This document shows positions 357-5,954 of a stretch of 5,954 nucleotides of DNA, in pieces. Source of the DNA: a virus (taxonomy: Duplodnaviria; Heunggongvirae; Uroviricota; Caudoviricetes). The stretch is taken from the IMG/VR virus record IMGVR_UViG_2684622669_000017, one strand, 5' to 3'. Under the pieces are notes generated by a model. It did no database searches, was not told where the DNA came from, and saw nothing but the letters and a program-made list of their open reading frames with translations. Both the position numbers and the translations under genes were made by a program. Numbering within the stretch: the first letter of the stretch is position 1; each line of letters starts with the position of its first letter.

Positions 357-560
357 TCCTCACCTCTACTCACTTTTATTCCTCACTTTTTGTTATTCCC
401 GTCCTGCTCCTCACCTGTTTTTTTTGCTTCTGTAATGCGTTGTTTTGCAATGTATTTTTTATTCCTCACTTTTTGACCTATATACAGGTGAGAAAGTGAG
501 GAATAGCGCTGATTTTTTGTTAAATTACCCGCTATCCTCACTTTTGCTCCTCACTTTTTA
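355..560. repeat. Iteron array with AT-rich core: putative origin of replication of the element
   Basis: Direct copies of (A)TTCCTCAC(T)TTTT(G) at 355-363, 369-377 (partial CTCACTTTT), 378-392, 409-414 (followed by T8 at 418-425), 461-475, 533-546 and 547-559. One inverted copy AAAGTGAGGAAT at 493-504. CACCTG (412-417) and CAGGTG (485-490) form an inverted pair flanking an AT-rich stretch 418-484. Lies immediately 3' of the helicase gene; the last iteron overlaps its stop codon. Confidence 0.7.
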
Positions 561-1973
561 CAGTGGGCGCACATAATCACCGTCAATAGCGATTACGCCG
601 TCGCTTTCCAGCTTGTACAGCCAGCGCCGGAAGTTTTTCATTTCATACCCCAGCTTTTTCATATCGTCGCGGAGAAGGGCGATAGTGCACGCCTCCCCGT
701 GTGCTGTTCGCGTTCTGATGCACTGCCATAGCGCGGCATGATTCTCCGTCTTGTTCCCGGCCTCCTCGATGCGCTCCAGTTCAACAGGTGGGCGCGGCTT
801 ATCCACAACCACCAGCGACGTGATTAACTCCCCGTCAGTGTCGGTAAAAAGCTCCACCACGCGTAAATCGTATGCAGCCTCTTTCAGTTCCTCCGCGTCC
901 TTCATTTTGGTGCAGGAGATAACCAGGGCTTCACTGTCTGCACCTTCACGGCGAATACGGTATTCAGCGTCCAGAGATGCACGAAATGCACTGGAACCAC
1001 GCGCCCCCTTTGTTTCATCCTTGCCGGAATGGTGAACCACCAGCACCGTGGCCCCTGTGCGTCGTTTCAGTTCGTCACATCCACGGATAAACGCCCCCAT
1101 ATCCCGCGCGTCATTTTCATCATTACCGCCAAAACACCGCGCCAGCGTATCCAGAATAATCATGCGTACCGGTTTACCCGTTTCCCTTTCAACCTGGCGG
1201 GAAGCGATGACCATTTCATCAACATCAAACTGGGCTGCCGGAAAAATCGGGCGGTTTACCAGGTACAGATTTTCCACCCGTTTATCATTAACGATTTCCC
1301 ATGCCTTGATACGGCGGGGGACACCAATGCCACCTTCACCGACGACATACATCACCGAACCATGCGCCACCCTGCGGCCTCCCCAGTGACGGCCAGTGGC
1401 AACATGACACGCCCAGGAACACGCGAGGAACGATTTATAGGAACCGCTCGCGCCGTATGTGCTGCACAATGAATTAGCCGGAATCACGCCCTTAACGACA
1501 TAATCAAGCTGTGTGTCGTACCCTGCAGATCCAATGCTCATTGGTAGCGTGGTTTTTCGCTGGCTGTATTGCTCGTCAGTAAGTATTTCCCCGCGCTCTG
1601 CCTGTTCGCGGATCCGTTGCAGGTAGTCGTGCCAGTTCTCCAGCTTCTGGCTGTGCATTCCATCAGGGTAATAATTCGCATCCCGTACACCTGCCGCCGC
1701 CAGCTTTTGCCCGATAGCATTAATATTTGACGGCTTGATGTGGCCTGCCTTGTACAGCCGGACACAATAGCGACCATCGTCGATGATTTTCAGGTCTGCC
1801 AGTTCGTCAAGCTGGCTGTCTCCAAGCCATACGGGTGGCACGTTGTCGCCAGCAAGTCGCCCGTCCTGTTCCTGCCATTGTTTCGCGTGCGCCCAGGCAT
1901 CACTACCCGCAAAAATAATGACTTCGGTCATTTTGTCGTGTGGCTGTTTTTTTAAGTTCGGTGCCAGTTTCAT
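558..1973 (-). CDS. RepA-like replicative helicase / replication initiator, AAA_25 (RecA-fold) ATPase family, with C-terminal putative winged-helix DNA-binding region
   Basis: 471-aa ORF, ATG at 1973..1971 with AGGGT SD-like 5 nt upstream, ATGA overlap with the upstream ORF stop. Motifs: P-loop-like VIPANSLCSTYGASGSYKSFLA (Walker A variant with Y in place of the second Gly, verified on the DNA as TAT), Walker B MIILDTL, and VLVVHHSGKD characteristic of RepA/AAA_25 helicases. Iterons lie immediately downstream. Confidence 0.8.
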   Translation of the reverse strand: MKLAPNLKKQPHDKMTEVIIFAGSDAWAHAKQWQEQDGRLAGDNVPPVWLGDSQLDELADLKIIDDGRYCVRLYKAGHIKPSNINAIGQKLAAAGVRDANYYPDGMHSQKLENWHDYLQRIREQAERGEILTDEQYSQRKTTLPMSIGSAGYDTQLDYVVKGVIPANSLCSTYGASGSYKSFLACSWACHVATGRHWGGRRVAHGSVMYVVGEGGIGVPRRIKAWEIVNDKRVENLYLVNRPIFPAAQFDVDEMVIASRQVERETGKPVRMIILDTLARCFGGNDENDARDMGAFIRGCDELKRRTGATVLVVHHSGKDETKGARGSSAFRASLDAEYRIRREGADSEALVISCTKMKDAEELKEAAYDLRVVELFTDTDGELITSLVVVDKPRPPVELERIEEAGNKTENHAALWQCIRTRTAHGEACTIALLRDDMKKLGYEMKNFRRWLYKLESDGVIAIDGDYVRPL

Positions 1974-2269
1974 TTTTTACCCCTGAATGCGTTAATCATG
2001 TTTTTCATTTTCTGAATATTTGCCCGTGCCTTTGCGTTGCTGGTGGGCTGTTTGCGTGGTGTGGCCTGTATCAGTGAAAAATCACGCCGGAACTGATAAA
2101 CAGGCATCACGCAGTCATAACCGTACCCATCACGGCGGTAAGTAACGCACCGTCCCGCCACGCTTTTAATCGTTACCGTGCCGCCGTAGTTATCCCGGAA
2201 AATATCGCCGGGGCGGATTTCAGGCCGAGCGGGGCCGCTGGCAGTAAAGCCAGAATTTTTCTTTTTCAT
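1970..2269 (-). CDS. Hypothetical protein (99 aa), function unknown; translationally coupled to the helicase gene
   Basis: ORF track; ATG at 2269..2267 preceded by GAGGAA 7 nt upstream; TGA stop overlaps the helicase ATG (ATGA). No recognisable motif. Confidence 0.6.
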   Translation of the reverse strand: MKKKNSGFTASGPARPEIRPGDIFRDNYGGTVTIKSVAGRCVTYRRDGYGYDCVMPVYQFRRDFSLIQATPRKQPTSNAKARANIQKMKNMINAFRGKK

Positions 2270-2709: not shown

Positions 2710-2942
2710 AACCCCCCCCCATTTTCACAATCAGCAATCAGGATGGCTTTGGCCTCATTCAGTGCCATATCAGCGGTAAGCTGTGCGTAGGCCAGCGAAT
2801 GGGGGATTATTGCCCCTGTATACTCCGGCTCTCTGGTAATGTGTTTTTCTGCGGTTGCTGCCGTGCATGAAATATCAATCAGCGCGCGCATTAGCGTTCT
2901 GATAGCTTCGTCGGCTGCGTCCGGACGGGTGTTATTGCACAT
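2682..2942 (-). CDS. Hypothetical protein (86 aa); possibly the N-terminal part of a gene split by the G9 tract
   Basis: ORF track; ATG at 2942..2940 with GGAGG 6 nt upstream; start overlaps the stop of the Icd-like gene (ATGTGCAATAA). The final 9 codons after the G9 tract (LCVMIVLMP) look like out-of-frame read-through. Confidence 0.55.
   Translation of the reverse strand: MCNNTRPDAADEAIRTLMRALIDISCTAATAEKHITREPEYTGAIIPHSLAYAQLTADMALNEAKAILIADCENGGGLCVMIVLMP
2712..2720. repeat. C9 (plus) / G9 (mRNA) homopolymer at the junction of two overlapping ORFs; candidate frameshift, slippage or sequencing-error site
   Basis: accccccccc at 2711-2720; read directly from the sequence. One extra G would fuse ORF 2682..2942 to ORF 2476..2709 (...DCENGGG-VMRDDRFNALK...), giving about 151 aa. 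Confidence 0.9.
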
Positions 2943-3138
2943 GGTGCACCTCCTGACGAATACGGGCGGCGAATACCATCACGCAGCCAGCCGGTGATTG
3001 TTGACGGGCTTCCTGTTCGCTGGTGGCCACGATGTGAATCACGCGCGGTTGTGCCGTGCTCAGGGCGATAAAACGCCAGATGTATTTATTCAGGTTGTGC
3101 GAGTCCCGCCCTTGCGGGTGTGTGGTATGATTTCTCAT
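2932..3138 (-). CDS. Small protein (68 aa) resembling Icd-like (host cell-division inhibitor-like) proteins of P4-type elements; first gene of the leftward operon
   Basis: ATG at 3138..3136 with GAGGT 4 nt upstream. Translation MRNHTTHPQGRDSHNLNKYIWRFIALSTAQPRVIHIVATSEQEARQQSPAGCVMVFAARIRQEVHHVQ. The W-R-F-x-A...ATSEQEAR...FAAR pattern matches, from memory, the Icd-like small-protein family. It is the 3' end of a 356-aa ORF-track entry whose upstream part I consider non-coding. Confidence 0.55.
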   Translation of the reverse strand: MRNHTTHPQGRDSHNLNKYIWRFIALSTAQPRVIHIVATSEQEARQQSPAGCVMVFAARIRQEVHHVQ

Positions 3139-3175
3139 AGCTACCTCGATACTTCTGCTATCGTTGGTGGTTAGA

Positions 3176-3209
3176 AGCCCTGCGAGTGGTAACGACACTT
3201 GCGGGGCTT
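3176..3209 (-). promoter_or_regulatory. 13-bp imperfect inverted repeat (AGCCCTGCGAGTG-N8-CACTTGCGGGGCT) in the predicted 5' leader of the leftward operon
   Basis: Read from sequence; 11/13 Watson-Crick matches, and both mismatches become G.U pairs in RNA; lies between the predicted leftward promoter and the Icd-like RBS. Confidence 0.45.
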
Positions 3210-3230
3210 TGCATTTATGCGCCTTGATAA

Positions 3231-3271
3231 TTTTAAGGTGTGGCCCACTATATGTTTTAGGTGTGGTCCAC
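3231..3271. promoter_or_regulatory. Tandem operator-like repeats TTTTA(A)GGTGTGG(C/T)CCAC, each containing a GTGG-N-CCAC palindrome
   Basis: Repeat 1 at 3231-3248 (palindrome GTGGCCCAC 3240-3248), repeat 2 at 3255-3271 (GTGGTCCAC 3263-3271), period about 24 bp. They overlap the -10 and spacer of the predicted leftward promoter and lie upstream of the RHH gene. Confidence 0.55.
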
Positions 3272-3276
3272 GTCAA
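3247..3276 (-). promoter_or_regulatory. Predicted sigma70 promoter for the leftward Icd-like/helicase operon (TTGACG-N18-TATAGT)
   Basis: Minus-strand -35 TTGACG (3276..3271) and -10 TATAGT (3252..3247) with an 18-nt spacer; predicted TSS near 3240; both operator repeats overlap it. Confidence 0.5.
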
Positions 3277-3337
3277 GAGTTTTATTTGTGCTTTTTCTGT
3301 GTATACTGTCCCCCACCAATCCACCAGAGGAATAGAA

Positions 3338-3517
3338 ATGGCAACGGGTACAACAAACGCAAAATCACAAGCTCTAAAGGCTCGTGTACCACACGAAATA
3401 GTAAACGCCATGGAATCAGTGAAAGAATCAGGCGAAAGCACATCACAATTCATCATTACGTCAATGCAAGGCGAGATCAAACGCCGCCAGCGGCGCAAGG
3501 CCAAAGAGCAGGAGTAA
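3338..3517 (+). CDS. Ribbon-helix-helix (Arc/MetJ/CopG-like) DNA-binding protein, 59 aa; candidate repressor of the divergent promoter
   Basis: ATG at 3338 with GAGG 7 nt upstream. Translation MATGTTNAKSQALKARVPHEIVNAMESVKESGESTSQFIITSMQGEIKRRQRRKAKEQE. Beta-strand (LKARVP) - helix A (HEIVNAMESVKES) - G-x-S turn - helix B matches the RHH signature (compare Arc NLRWPREVLDLVRKVAEENGRSVNSEIYQRVME). Palindromic repeats lie upstream. Confidence 0.65.
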   Translation: MATGTTNAKSQALKARVPHEIVNAMESVKESGESTSQFIITSMQGEIKRRQRRKAKEQE

Positions 3518-3574
3518 CCATCACCAGCGCCGTGGTGTGAGTAACTACGGCGCATTGCTATGCAGGACAACACA

Positions 3575-3748
3575 ATGACCGATAAAGAATTGACCAAAAC
3601 ATTATCACCGGCACGGAAAAGACGGCGCAGAAAGATAGAACATGAATCAGAAAGATTCGCACCTTGTTCGTTTGCTCTTGAGAAATTCCTTAAAGAGCAC
3701 AGGAAAAAGCTCTCGTTGCAAACCTTGGAACGAACCAAATCTGACTGA
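3575..3748 (+). CDS. Small basic protein (57 aa; 62 aa if translation starts at the upstream ATG 3560), function unknown
   Basis: ATG at 3575 preceded by AGGA (3564-3567) with 7-nt spacing; the ORF-track start at 3560 lacks an SD. Translation MTDKELTKTLSPARKRRRRKIEHESERFAPCSFALEKFLKEHRKKLSLQTLERTKSD; same frame as the RHH gene but separated by two stop codons. Confidence 0.45.
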   Translation: MTDKELTKTLSPARKRRRRKIEHESERFAPCSFALEKFLKEHRKKLSLQTLERTKSD

Positions 3749-3827
3749 TCACATTGCCCACCAGCCGCAAATGTGGCATTGTTGGTGATGCTCATACGTT
3801 GGGGATAACGTGTAGCTTGTGTCGAGG

Positions 3828-3855
3828 GGCCACCGTAGCGGTTGGCCTTTGTTTT
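3828..3855 (+). terminator. Probable intrinsic terminator of the RHH/small-protein operon
   Basis: Hairpin GGCCACCG-tag-CGGTTGGCC (8 bp with one bulge) followed by TTTGTTTT (3848-3855). Confidence 0.45.
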
Positions 3856-3872
3856 GCCTGTTATCCGGCAAT

Positions 3873-3902
3873 TGTGGCGCTTCGCCACACGGTTGATATA
3901 AT
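3873..3902 (+). promoter_or_regulatory. Extended -10 promoter (TGaTATAAT at 3894-3902) overlapped by a perfect 7-bp-arm palindrome TGTGGCG-CTT-CGCCACA (3873-3889)
   Basis: Perfect TATAAT at 3897-3902 preceded by TG at 3894-3895; -35 is weak (TTGTGG 3872-3877, 19-nt spacer); the palindrome occupies the -35/spacer region like an operator. Confidence 0.4.
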
Positions 3903-3908
3903 TCCCCT

Positions 3909-3979
3909 GCACTGATCCATTTTTTTCGCAGCAGGTTAATTGTTCGCAAGGGCGCTCCGGTAACGGGGCGCTTTTTGTT
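3909..3979 (+). ncRNA. Candidate small RNA (about 70 nt) between its own promoter and an intrinsic terminator
   Basis: Predicted TSS about 7 nt after the TATAAT; transcript ends at the 3952-3979 terminator; no ORF with an RBS in between; contains a possible 5' hairpin CCTGC...GCAGG. Entirely inferential. Confidence 0.3.
3952..3979 (+). terminator. Intrinsic terminator (plus strand): GC-rich 8-bp stem with GUAA tetraloop and U-tract
   Basis: GCGCTCCG-gtaa-CGGGGCGC (one U.G pair) followed by TTTTTGTT (3972-3979). On the minus strand the hairpin is not followed by a T-run, so it is unidirectional. Confidence 0.55.
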
Positions 3980-4006
3980 ATGTTCATCGCGTTACGCCTC
4001 ACACCA

Positions 4007-4213
4007 TTACGCAGCCGTTCCGCGCGCTTCTTCCTCGCGCTCTTTCAGCCAGGCCAGCACTTCATCTTCATACCAGCCAACACGACGCAGACCGATTTTG
4101 AATCCTTTCGGGAATTTTCCGGCGTTGATCATGTCCTGTAGCGAACTGTCTGCCTTGATGCGCAGAATATTTTTTACTTCCTGACGGGTAAGTATTTTTC
4201 TGATTGTTTCCAC
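4007..4213 (-). CDS. alpA: AlpA-family phage regulatory protein (transcriptional activator / excisionase-like, winged HTH)
   Basis: 68-aa ORF starting at GTG 4213..4211 with GAGGT 8 nt upstream. Translation ...ILTRQEVKNILRIKADSSLQDMINAGKFPKGFKIGLRRVGWYEDEVLAWLKER aligns with E. coli AlpA motifs (FPK, VGW, E-x-E-[IV]-x-x-W-L). Confidence 0.8.
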   Translation of the reverse strand: METIRKILTRQEVKNILRIKADSSLQDMINAGKFPKGFKIGLRRVGWYEDEVLAWLKEREEEARGTAA

Positions 4214-4280
4214 TATGTTTTACCTCGTTAATCCGGCGTATTCCGGTGATAAATACGGTAAAACAGGGCAGGGCGGGAAA

Positions 4281-4318
4281 AACAGTACCCACCGTTTTAA
4301 AACGGTACCCACTGTTTT
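4281..4318. promoter_or_regulatory. Composite repeat upstream of alpA: two direct GTACCCAC copies 20 bp apart around a perfect palindrome CCGTTTTAAAACGG, with inverted outer flanks AAAAACAG / CTGTTTTT
   Basis: GTACCCAC at 4285-4292 and 4305-4312; palindrome at 4292-4305; lies between the int-operon terminator and the alpA RBS. Confidence 0.4.
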
Positions 4319-4348
4319 TTATCTCATTGATTACGCTTTTCTTTCTGC

Positions 4349-4377
4349 AAAAAAATAGCGACCGCAAAGGGCCGCTA
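4349..4377 (-). terminator. Intrinsic terminator downstream of the int / 76-aa ORF transcription unit
   Basis: Minus-strand hairpin TAGCGGCC-ctttgc-GGTCGCTA (one mismatch) followed by TTTTTTT (plus-strand A7 at 4349-4355), 7 nt after the ORF stop. Confidence 0.55.
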
Positions 4378-4383
4378 TTGTGA

Positions 4384-4614
4384 TTACCGTTTCCACTTCT
4401 TAGGTCGCCCACCGCATTTAAGGCTGGTGGGCCTCAGCACCTTGTCGATGCTTTCAGCCAGATTTTTCGATGCACCACGCGAGCGCAAAAAACTGACTAC
4501 CTCGTGTTTTGTGGGGGCTGTTGATTTGTCTTCCGGATCGTATGTTGACCAGAATTCACGATTTGCCATTAACGCCAGTTGCAGCCCTTCGCCGTAGGCG
4601 GTGGTATTTTGCAT
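4384..4614 (-). CDS. Hypothetical small protein (76 aa; 61 aa if translation starts at the internal ATG 4569), basic C-terminus, function unknown
   Basis: ORF track; ATG at 4614..4612 lacks an SD. An out-of-frame 19-codon upstream ORF (ATG 4628..4626, GGAG 3 nt upstream) ends in TAATG, overlapping the internal ATG at 4569. Protein-like composition; followed by an intrinsic terminator. Confidence 0.5.
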   Translation of the reverse strand: MQNTTAYGEGLQLALMANREFWSTYDPEDKSTAPTKHEVVSFLRSRGASKNLAESIDKVLRPTSLKCGGRPKKWKR

Positions 4615-4659
4615 AATAGAATTTTCATATACTCCGGCCTTGTCGTTAAATTTGTGGCA

Positions 4660-4665
4660 ATTATA
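4660..4665 (-). promoter_or_regulatory. Possible -10 element (perfect TATAAT on the minus strand) between the integrase stop and the 76-aa ORF
   Basis: Plus-strand attata at 4660-4665; -35 is weak (ATGCAA); position suggests an internal promoter for the small downstream ORF. Confidence 0.25.
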
Positions 4666-4712
4666 CGATGGTTTGGCATGGTTTGCATCGCTTTTACTGG
4701 CTTTTTGTACAG

Positions 4713-5954
4713 TTACACGGCACGGATACCCCTTTTACCACTGGCTATGGTCACTCCGGTAGCTGCGGCCTCTACAAATTCCCCCCACCAGCGCATAAGC
4801 ACCACGCGCTTTTCCAGGTAGTTACTTCGGTTATATGCTCGCCTTACCTCGTTCGTGTCCACGTGTGCGAGTGCGGCCTCGATTACGTCCGGCTCGAATC
4901 CTTCCTCGTTCGCTGCTGTACTGAATATGGCGCGTAATCCGTGAGACACCAGCACACCAGCGTAACCCATCCGGCGTAATGCAGCGTTAGCGGTCTGGCT
5001 GCTCATTGGTAGCATTGGATTTTTAAGGCTGGGAAAAACATGTTCCCTGTGTGCGCTGATTGGCTTCATGGTTTCCAGTACAGCCATAGCCTGACCGCAA
5101 AGGGGGATCACATGGTCACGGCGCATCTTCATGCGTCCGGCTGGAATCGTCCAGGTTTCGGCATCGAGATCTATTTCTTCCCAGCGTGCGGCGGCTGCTT
5201 CGGCTGGGCGTGCTACGGTCAACAGTTGCCACTCGATCAGCAATCTGGTTTGCCGTTCTATGCTGGCGACCGATAAATCGTGCATTAGCTGCGGTAGCTG
5301 TTCCGGTCGGATGGTTGGCATGTGCTTTTTGGTGGGTGAGGGAAATGCCTTGCGGACGTTAGCAGCGGTGTTGATGTCAATCAGCCCACTGTTGGCGGCA
5401 AAATCCATCACTTCATTGATGCGCTGCAAAACGCGTTTCAGAGTTTCCAGGTTGCCGCGTGCTTTAATGGGTGTGAGTATCTCAACAAAGCGGCGAGCGG
5501 TGAGGGTATCTATTGGCGTTTTTCCGATGTACGGGAATACGTATTTTTCCATGGATCGCCAGATATCCTTAATCGTGTTGTAAGCGAGATTCTGGCCTTT
5601 TTTCATCTCGTACCAGTCAGAGGCAACTTTTTCGAACGTGTTGCCCTTTTTCCGACTCTCTGCTTCACGTTTCCGGCGTTCGTGGTCCTGTGGGTCAACT
5701 CCCTTCGCTATGAGTGACCTGTATTCATTCCGTCGTTCTCTGGCATCGGACAGGGAAACATCATTCAGCGATCCGAGGCTGATGATAGTCCGTTTTTTAT
5801 CTGCCGGGCGGTAGTACGTAAAACGCCAGATTTTTGATCCGGAGGGTTTCACCAGAAGAAATAATCCTCCGCCATCCTGCAGGGTGTATTCCTTTTCCCC
5901 TGGTCGTGCGTTTTTGATCTCCGTAATAGTTAGTGGGGTGGTTTTTCGTGCCAT
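4713..5954 (-). CDS. int: Site-specific tyrosine recombinase/integrase, P4 family (N-terminal arm-binding DUF4102-type domain plus catalytic domain)
   Basis: 413-aa ORF; ATG is the last three nucleotides of the window (5954..5952); TAA at 4715..4713. N-terminus MARKTTPLTITEIKNARPGEKEYTLQDGGGLFLLVKPSGSKIWRFTYY is typical of P4-type integrases (compare E. coli IntA). Catalytic motifs are present: R in TVARPAE, HGLRAIF (H-x-x-R), and tyrosine in RRAYNRSNY. Confidence 0.92.
   Translation of the reverse strand: MARKTTPLTITEIKNARPGEKEYTLQDGGGLFLLVKPSGSKIWRFTYYRPADKKRTIISLGSLNDVSLSDARERRNEYRSLIAKGVDPQDHERRKREAESRKKGNTFEKVASDWYEMKKGQNLAYNTIKDIWRSMEKYVFPYIGKTPIDTLTARRFVEILTPIKARGNLETLKRVLQRINEVMDFAANSGLIDINTAANVRKAFPSPTKKHMPTIRPEQLPQLMHDLSVASIERQTRLLIEWQLLTVARPAEAAAARWEEIDLDAETWTIPAGRMKMRRDHVIPLCGQAMAVLETMKPISAHREHVFPSLKNPMLPMSSQTANAALRRMGYAGVLVSHGLRAIFSTAANEEGFEPDVIEAALAHVDTNEVRRAYNRSNYLEKRVVLMRWWGEFVEAAATGVTIASGKRGIRAV

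Follow-up and report, generated by a model that had tools for sequence, protein, structure and literature searches.

The DNA considered here, called the window throughout, is the whole 5,954-nt stretch of IMG/VR virus record IMGVR_UViG_2684622669_000017 (Duplodnaviria; Heunggongvirae; Uroviricota; Caudoviricetes). Its minus strand carries a P4-type tyrosine integrase gene (int), a small gene for a 76-amino acid (aa) protein and alpA in that order, and the small gene with its immediate signals is the subject of this analysis (Table 1). Judged from its sequence, the 76-aa protein is a free-standing version of a ~65-aa three-helix domain that is so far undescribed, here designated by its motifs as the "FWSTYDP...TAP...LRP...G-R-P-K" domain. 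An earlier note on the same DNA had suggested a gene with possible transcription signals of its own and a tie to the integrase, which stands; it had also read the region upstream of the gene as a leader-peptide arrangement yielding a 61-aa product, which does not.

Table 1. Genes and sequence features of the window (coordinates count from its first nucleotide).
Feature	Coordinates	Strand	Details
P4-type tyrosine integrase gene (int)	4713..5954	-	413 aa; Pfam Arm-DNA-bind_3, Phage_int_M, Phage_integrase
Conserved non-coding block, int stop codon to -10 box	4666..4712	-	47 nt; many invariant columns across nine divergent leader types
-35 element, weak	upstream of TATAAT 4665-4660	-	ATGCAA; 17-bp spacing; 3/6 matches
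-10 hexamer, perfect	4660..4665	-	TATAAT in 60/61 related loci, TATAGT in the other one
19-codon out-of-frame open reading frame (mini-ORF)	4569..4628	-	MKILLCKIPPPTAKGCNWR; coordinates include the stop codon; -1 relative to the main frame
Small open reading frame	4384..4614	-	76 aa, 231 nt; RefSeq WP_001181702.1, annotated "hypothetical protein"
Intrinsic terminator	4349..4379	-	10-bp stem with one G-U pair, 6-nt loop, T7 run; hairpin -13.1 kcal/mol
Two tandem 20-nt imperfect palindromes	4279..4318	.	minus strand AAAACAGTGGGTACCGTTTT / AAAACGGTGGGTACTGTTTT; 66-105 nt upstream of alpA
alpA	4007..4213	-	68 aa; downstream neighbor of the small gene; Pfam Phage_AlpA 4.5e-08
YlcI/YnfO gene	about 3338-3517	+	between alpA and the DUF4222 gene
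DUF4222 gene	1970..2269	-	
RepA/AAA_25 helicase gene	558..1973	-	471 aa

The domain was recovered by searching 1.84 billion cluster representatives exhaustively with a profile, which gave 613 matches at E<=1e-3. Nearly all of these are proteins of 150-370 aa in which the match sits at the extreme C-terminus, a median of 1 residue from the end, and the named family members (from Providencia, Kluyvera, Salmonella, Oceanospirillaceae and Zoogloeaceae) are all annotated as hypothetical. Close homologues of the 76-aa protein fall into no more than about 15-36 clusters, virtually all of them from E. coli. In the closer clade, the profile match covers query residues from about 5-8 onward, and the consensus (HxSEGLELxxxAIxxFWSTYDPxDxxTAPTKxEVIxYLxxxGxSxNxAxAxDxxLRPxxLxxxGRPKK) starts ahead of the position of Met16; the domain therefore includes the segment upstream of that residue. 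The window protein shows every element of the family, namely helix 1 (xEGLxLxxxA), the FWSTYDPxDxxTAP loop, two further helices, LRP, and a basic G-R/P C-terminal tail.

For the window protein, AlphaFold2 predicts helices at residues 5-22, 36-45 and 50-60 followed by a disordered tail, with a mean predicted local distance difference test score (pLDDT) of 79; the score is about 91 for residues 11-20 of helix 1 and about 50 for residues 71-76. In the model of a 234-aa Providencia long form, an N-terminal alpha/beta domain predicted with confidence is joined by a disordered linker to the same three-helix domain, which scores pLDDT 92-96 and has H160-173 as its helix 1, likewise at 92-96. The loop between helices 1 and 2 (FWSTYDPxDxxTAP) is the most conserved surface. 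The globular core is near neutral, with 7 Lys or Arg against 8 Asp or Glu residues, and residues 61-76 carry a charge of +7. Within the tail, G[RKP][RKP] is present in 140 of 167 family members, and the counts by motif are 64 for GPR, 36 for GRP, 30 for GRR, and 27 for none. The suggestion in the earlier note of an accessory DNA-binding protein is a reasonable guess given the basic tail, whose motif is AT-hook-like but not canonical.

Searches of annotated collections placed the protein in no described family. No Pfam family matched the 76-aa protein at E<=0.1 or any of 80 long-form relatives, and NCBIfam, PHROG and PADLOC searches with the 76-aa protein and the long forms returned no family. 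A sequence profile search of the PDB gave nothing below E 0.48, and a Foldseek comparison with viral structures gave nothing below E 0.9. Literature searches by accessions and by peptide motifs found no paper naming the gene or family, and the small gene is unmentioned in the paper on phage-inducible chromosomal islands that form capsids (cf-PICIs; 10.1101/2022.09.08.507074). Two database entries are unusual. In the 90-aa protein P0014, labelled Cooperia oncophora, residues 1-41 of the small protein run into AlpA's C-terminal portion; it evidently arose by deletion within the same E. coli island, here contaminating a nematode assembly. The 2552-aa protein P0016 shows 22 separate profile stretches, all at query positions 32-54, probably as an artefact of repeats or of low complexity, and was left out of all family counts.

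The leader-peptide reading was drawn from signals around the start of the gene, and these signals are real. GGAG at 4635-4632 stands 3 nt before ATG 4628, the 19 codons that follow end in TAA at 4571-4569, and this stop codon overlaps ATG 4569-4567, which is Met16 of the 76-aa open reading frame (ORF) at 4614-4384, so that a TAATG junction is present at 4571-4567. ATG 4614 is essentially without a Shine-Dalgarno sequence (SD), its duplex with the anti-SD reaching -2.2 kcal/mol compared with -6.1 kcal/mol for ATG 4628. On these grounds, it had been proposed that the mini-ORF is a translated leader and that reinitiation at its stop codon produces a protein starting at Met16.

Comparison of 61 related loci (7 from complete genomes, 53 from IMG/VR, and the window, together comprising 26 unique 5ʹ variants) argues against this proposal. 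Over codons 9-15, which both frames cover, the ratio of nonsynonymous to synonymous differences per site (pN/pS) is 0.11 in the main frame versus 1.04 in the mini-ORF frame, and substitutions there are mostly synonymous in the former and not in the latter. For the whole small gene, pN/pS is 0.15-0.23 at a pS of about 0.5-0.8. Residues 9-15 (GEGLQLAL), upstream of Met16, are conserved in the alignment of close homologues, and residues 5-15 fall within helix 1 of a domain that is conserved in hundreds of distant proteins. Met16, by comparison, is Leu in locus L003 and in proteins P0006/P0007. On this pattern of conservation, the functional product must start upstream of Met16, with codons 9-15 under selection in the main frame, and the 61-aa product is not borne out. 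Nor is the junction special, because TAATG or TGATG arises in that frame whenever ATG comes after a Leu codon with TA or TG as its last two letters; the leader type termed D has TGATG at the junction position without any mini-ORF.

Of the 61 loci, 53 have the mini-ORF, but these cover just 5 of 7 leader types. Its peptide shows no conservation (the value of 1.04 was obtained over the overlap with the main ORF), and its PPP motif occurs in the window's leader type only. The earlier note had itself named relatives that lack the mini-ORF, or that have an SD before the long-form start, as grounds for abandoning its model, and relatives of both kinds exist; the proposal of termination and reinitiation fails accordingly. 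Type D (L007, L049) lacks the out-of-frame ORF and has GAGG 8 nt before an in-frame ATG (-7.2 kcal/mol). In types B and B', AAGGAG precedes an in-frame GTG by 8 nt (-7.7/-8.0 kcal/mol), and TTG takes the place of the mini-ORF ATG in B'. The mini-ORF ATG of types A, A' and E aligns with the in-frame, SD-equipped ATG at which type D starts. This suggests, as the simplest history, an indel in the variable N-terminal region that left the old start out of frame, after which ATG 4614 took over. From this alignment, the 19-codon ORF is most readily understood as the relic of a start codon, or as an upstream start in competition with the main one, rather than as a conserved leader peptide.

Across the loci, the leader, from the -10 box to the conserved core, exists as several cassette types. 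In types A, A', B, C and E, which make up the 53 loci, an out-of-frame ATG with a better SD spans the main start, and in types A, A', C and E the SD of the main start is weak (+0.4 to -4.2 kcal/mol). The leader types trace to only two or three independent origins, given an ATGAA block common to A, A' and E and ACCCGACTC common to B, B' and C. At position 16, type E has Leu. Annotation of the start by the Prokaryotic Genome Annotation Pipeline (PGAP) is inconsistent in the family, with 61 aa from Met16 called in L002-type islands (L002 2674-2859) and 76 aa in the window type; in L002-type islands, AAGGAG followed after 8 nt by GTG would give an 80-aa form. Two other arrangements were considered for the leader and rejected. 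Against a programmed -1 frameshift that would fuse the mini-ORF with the main frame stand the lack of a conserved slippery heptamer (TGC AAA ATA in the window, TGC AAA AAA in L004, TGC AAA CAA in L005) and the conservation of an in-frame ATG at that spot. For a conserved leader RNA structure hiding the SD, the alignment fold reached -5.2 kcal/mol with 0 compensatory pairs, and the single-sequence z was -2.0.

The small gene also has transcription signals of its own, as the earlier note had suggested: a conserved -10 box and a conserved terminator. The TATAAT it had reported at 4665-4660 was confirmed by re-reading the minus strand. The frequency of this hexamer alone is at chance level (2 in the window versus 2.25 expected), and a two-hexamer promoter scan of the region passed no promoter because the -35 element is weak. 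The hexamer is nevertheless given weight because it has been conserved across nearly all of the loci while the flanking leader was reshuffled into several cassette types. Transcription is expected, from the position of this box, to start near 4653-4651. Between the int stop codon and the small gene (minus strand 4712-4620), no terminator-like site was found, and read-through from int is therefore also likely. The block separating the int stop codon from the -10 box is conserved as well, and it contains four A-tracts (ACAAAAAG, GTAAAAG, GCAAACC and CCAAACC) spaced 11, 11 and 10 bp apart. It may be an UP-element-like or bent-DNA region that offsets the weak -35 element, or else a protein-binding site. 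The same block includes a repeated CAAACCAT motif, and its conservation exceeds that of the leader downstream of the -10 box.

At the other end of the gene, the intrinsic terminator described in the earlier note was confirmed, with a stem at 4379-4354 and a T-run to 4349. Terminator-like sites are above chance in this part of the window (7 versus 2.2 expected in 3900-4900). Among unique downstream variants, 34 of 35 keep the terminator, and they do so as two different hairpin sequences at the same position, the hairpin of a second E. coli clade having an energy of -12.1 kcal/mol. That two unlike hairpins have been kept argues for selection on terminator function within the E. coli clade. The terminator is predicted to end transcripts from int and the small gene before the alpA control region. 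Within that region lie the tandem palindromes, with half-sites retained from one E. coli clade to another, a variable central 4 nt, and one unit deleted in L053 and L058; they are a likely candidate operator of the alpA promoter. In the second clade (L004 at about 2855-2875, and also L005, L006, L034 and others), the terminator T-run passes directly into a TATAAT (GCCGCTTTTTTTATAAT) that could, from its placement, belong to a promoter facing alpA. No TATAAT occurs at that spot in the window's clade.

The element that carries the gene can be recognized from a nearly identical copy in E. coli strain 06-00048 (L001), whose int-to-alpA stretch is 99.8% identical to the window. There, int is annotated as an integrase and lies beside a tRNA-Pro gene downstream of yejM. 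Beyond alpA, the L001 island contains major capsid, decoration and small-terminase (TerS) genes, and the same gene set is found in L069; tRNA-Pro adjoins the island in L001-L007 and L069. The window ends before the capsid/TerS region, but it carries int, alpA and an AAA_25/RepA replication gene in a single orientation, the layout of a phage-inducible chromosomal island (PICI). On this gene content, the host element is a satellite of PICI or capsid-forming PICI type, as the capsid, decoration and TerS genes of the L001 island indicate, inserted at the E. coli tRNA-Pro gene. These islands are mosaic. The replication gene of the window differs from that of L001, which encodes a 601-aa "DNA primase family" protein (11432-13237) in place of the 471-aa RepA/AAA_25 helicase at 558-1973, and a helicase of the window type is also found in L003, L005 and L069. 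A 356-aa ORF listed at 2932-4002 on the minus strand of the window is probably spurious, as it overlaps the plus-strand YlcI/YnfO gene; in relatives, the corresponding region contains Icd-like pseudogene fragments.

The tie between the small gene and int, which the earlier note had drawn from position alone, reaches across genera. In 8 of 8 non-E. coli contexts having an upstream flank, a P4-type integrase (Arm-DNA-bind_3, Phage_int_M, Phage_integrase) lies upstream on the same strand: Oxalobacteraceae L062, Pseudomonadales L063, Sedimenticola L064, Kluyvera L065, metagenomic L068, L070 and L072, and Salmonella L074. AlpA or HTH_17 is encoded by the next gene downstream in L063, L065, L066-68, the GCA_041447075 contig, L071, L073 and L074, so that the link to int is more constant than the link to alpA. 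Within E. coli, 372 of the 442 complete genomes that match any part of a 706-nt block comprising the small gene, the intergenic region and alpA carry the whole block, and a gene for the domain in the int-alpA gap is present in about 7% of complete genomes. Outside such islands, a tblastn search for the FWSTYDP domain found no match in 50,697 phage genomes, and a search of a plasmid collection gave one match, in a 1.4-Mb record. A scan of GTDB genomes with the alignment of close relatives returned no loci; a second scan returned 3. The slot after int can also hold cargo, such as an acetyltransferase gene in L066-L068 and an SNase gene in L070. In L066 (1463-2142), L067 and L068, the acetyltransferase gene lies between int and a 144-aa ORF without a Pfam match, which is followed 54 nt later by a 63-aa ORF containing the C-terminal domain only; this pair is, by its arrangement, either a split long form or a two-gene version.

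Taken jointly, these observations are best accounted for by a compact monocistronic cassette within a PICI-type integration and regulation module, in which a 76-aa product made from ATG 4614 acts as a DNA-associated accessory of integrase and AlpA and the 19-codon ORF is a relic. A probability of about 0.6 is assigned to this reading as a whole. Transcription would start about 7-10 nt downstream of the conserved TATAAT, with a contribution by read-through from int, and transcripts would stop at the intrinsic terminator that separates int and the small gene from the alpA control region. The product would be the full 76-residue protein, a near-neutral three-helix bundle with a short disordered tail of Gly, Pro, Arg and Lys. 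As the gene stands beside P4-type integrases and usually directly upstream of alpA/HTH_17, the protein is taken to associate with DNA and to assist or regulate the integrase/AlpA switch, a role also suggested by its composition; that of an integrase-linked accessory protein is plausible on the genomic context. Contact with DNA would be made by the tail, and the conserved loop would serve as docking site for a conserved partner, which might be Int, AlpA or a host protein. In the lineage of the window, an indel would have put the old ATG, homologous to the type D start, out of frame, and the downstream ATG would have taken over; the mini-ORF today probably only competes with, and thereby lowers, initiation at ATG 4614.

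Several observations weigh against this picture. DNA binding, a partner or a phenotype is not known for any member of the family, and the tail often has GPRK instead of the canonical RGRP AT-hook. ATG 4614 has a poor SD while the better-equipped out-of-frame ATG 4628 spans it, and the retention of the mini-ORF in most loci leaves a regulatory role possible. No intrinsic terminator was found after the gene in the distant relatives L063, L065 and L066, and no AlpA was detected downstream in L062, L064 and L070. The cassette architecture is therefore specific to the E. coli clade, and insulation by a terminator cannot be claimed for the whole family. In the PICI EcCIMP1, the interval from int to alpA contains no homologue. 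Induction requires AlpA as its activator, and overexpression of AlpA alone induces EcCICFT073 (PMC6092414); the small protein is therefore no universal requirement.

The alternatives differ mainly in what they make of the start region and of the gene's position. That ribosomes translate the 19 codons from ATG 4628, stop at TAATG, and reinitiate at ATG 4569 to make a 61-aa basic protein now appears highly improbable. The GGAG, the missing SD at ATG 4614 and the overlap of stop codon and ATG all fit such a scheme, as do the 53 of 61 loci that keep the mini-ORF in the same frame with the same end and the 61-aa form that PGAP annotates in L002. However, purifying selection across codons 9-15 acts in the main frame and not in that of the leader, these codons encode part of helix 1 in a widely conserved domain, Met16 is replaced by Leu in some relatives, and types D and B' dispense with the leader or its ATG; the junction is forced by Leu-Met codons, and the PPP motif is not conserved. 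A maintained attenuator is possible, if unlikely: ribosomes starting at ATG 4628 would cross ATG 4614 and keep the level of the 76-aa protein low or condition-dependent, and a minor Met16 isoform could arise by reinitiation. The better SD of an out-of-frame ATG spanning the main start in five leader types, together with the weak main-start SDs in four of them, is what such an upstream ORF would look like. Yet these leader types have only two or three independent origins, the feature was lost in B' and D without replacement, and neither the peptide nor an RNA structure in the leader is conserved.

Other alternatives concern what the protein does. A steadily made repressor or helper sensor that binds the tandem 20-bp palindromes and keeps alpA off until a helper-phage product removes it seems decidedly improbable. 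The idea draws on the position of the gene, which in many genera is immediately upstream of the control region of alpA, on its having a conserved -10 box and terminator to itself, on the cationic tail, and on the conserved palindromes between the gene and alpA. It would also fill a gap, as Gram-negative PICIs are induced through alpA, their repressor is not known, and the route from helper phage to alpA is unresolved (PMC6092414). Dimerization and sequence-specific binding by the small protein are, however, purely hypothetical, its core is neutral, and its most conserved surface is a loop rather than a recognition helix. The palindromes may instead be AlpA sites, because AlpA acts on its own promoter (PMC6092414, PMC11773190), and the gene is absent from EcCIMP1 and linked more steadily to int than to alpA. 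It is also distinctly unlikely that the gene is cargo unrelated to the island life cycle, for instance a modulator of the host or of the helper phage, in a permissive slot after int. Known cargo in that slot (acetyltransferase, SNase) and the lack of a functional annotation in any library searched would suit this explanation. Cargo normally varies between related islands, but the small gene is inherited together with alpA in 372 of the 442 genomes with a match, the domain keeps its position in islands of Gamma- and Betaproteobacteria that otherwise differ, and PADLOC returned no match. The DNA-associated accessory made from ATG 4614 remains the preferred reading.

A bolder version of the accessory role would make the protein a third component of the integrase/AlpA switch in P4-integrase islands (PICIs and cf-PICIs). 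Made steadily from its own promoter and tethered to island DNA by its tail, it would use the loop to hold Int or the alpA promoter quiescent until a helper-phage product displaced it. This is a long shot, but if it were true, Gram-negative satellites would have in this protein their missing negative regulator or helper sensor. Should the protein prove to be no more than passive, the finding would be an ordinary one. Interest in the gene is modest and lies mainly in its being an unannotated and, on the contexts compared, widespread companion of P4-type integrases in satellites. An unannotated conserved domain encoded exactly between int and alpA is an obvious target for deletion, in EcCIEDL933-like islands or the island of Nissle 1917, and a family that has no Pfam or NCBIfam model and inconsistent PGAP start calls raises practical points for annotation.

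Among known systems, the closest by position is EcCIMP1_002, a small ORF between int and alpA in the E. coli PICI EcCIMP1 that is of unknown function and mis-annotated in databases (PMC11773190). The order of int, small ORF and alpA is the same as in the window, but identity of the two was rejected, as no ORF in the int-alpA gap of EcCIMP1 has the FWSTYD motif or resembles the domain. The start region resembles stop/start-overlap coupling of the trp type (ATGA/TAATG) in that a short SD-bearing ORF ends in TAATG over an in-frame ATG. Unlike that system, neither the downstream ATG nor the short ORF is conserved, and the stretch between the two main-frame ATGs is coding and under selection. RecX (PF02631; PDB 3e3v, 3dfg) is also built of three-helix units; the 76-aa protein has neither its profile hidden Markov model (HMM) match nor its three tandem three-helix repeats. 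RGRP is the core of the HMGA AT-hook, and AT-hook-like minor-groove tails also offer a bacterial comparison. The 76-aa protein is similar to these in its short disordered Gly-Arg-Pro-Lys-Lys segment within a +7 tail at the C-terminus. It differs in that the GGRPKK of the window lacks the first Arg of RGRP, the commonest form in the family is GPRK, the segment occurs as a single copy, and binding is only predicted. Finally, like AlpA, Vis and Xis (PF05930, PF12728), it is a small protein encoded beside a P4-type integrase in an integration/induction module, and recombination directionality is one of the roles that the earlier note had suggested for it. Unlike them, it has no HMM match (E<=0.1), and its model of three helices and a disordered tail, with no beta wing, departs from the winged-helix fold. 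A true AlpA is encoded immediately downstream, and the AlpA/Vis/Xis role in this module is therefore already filled.

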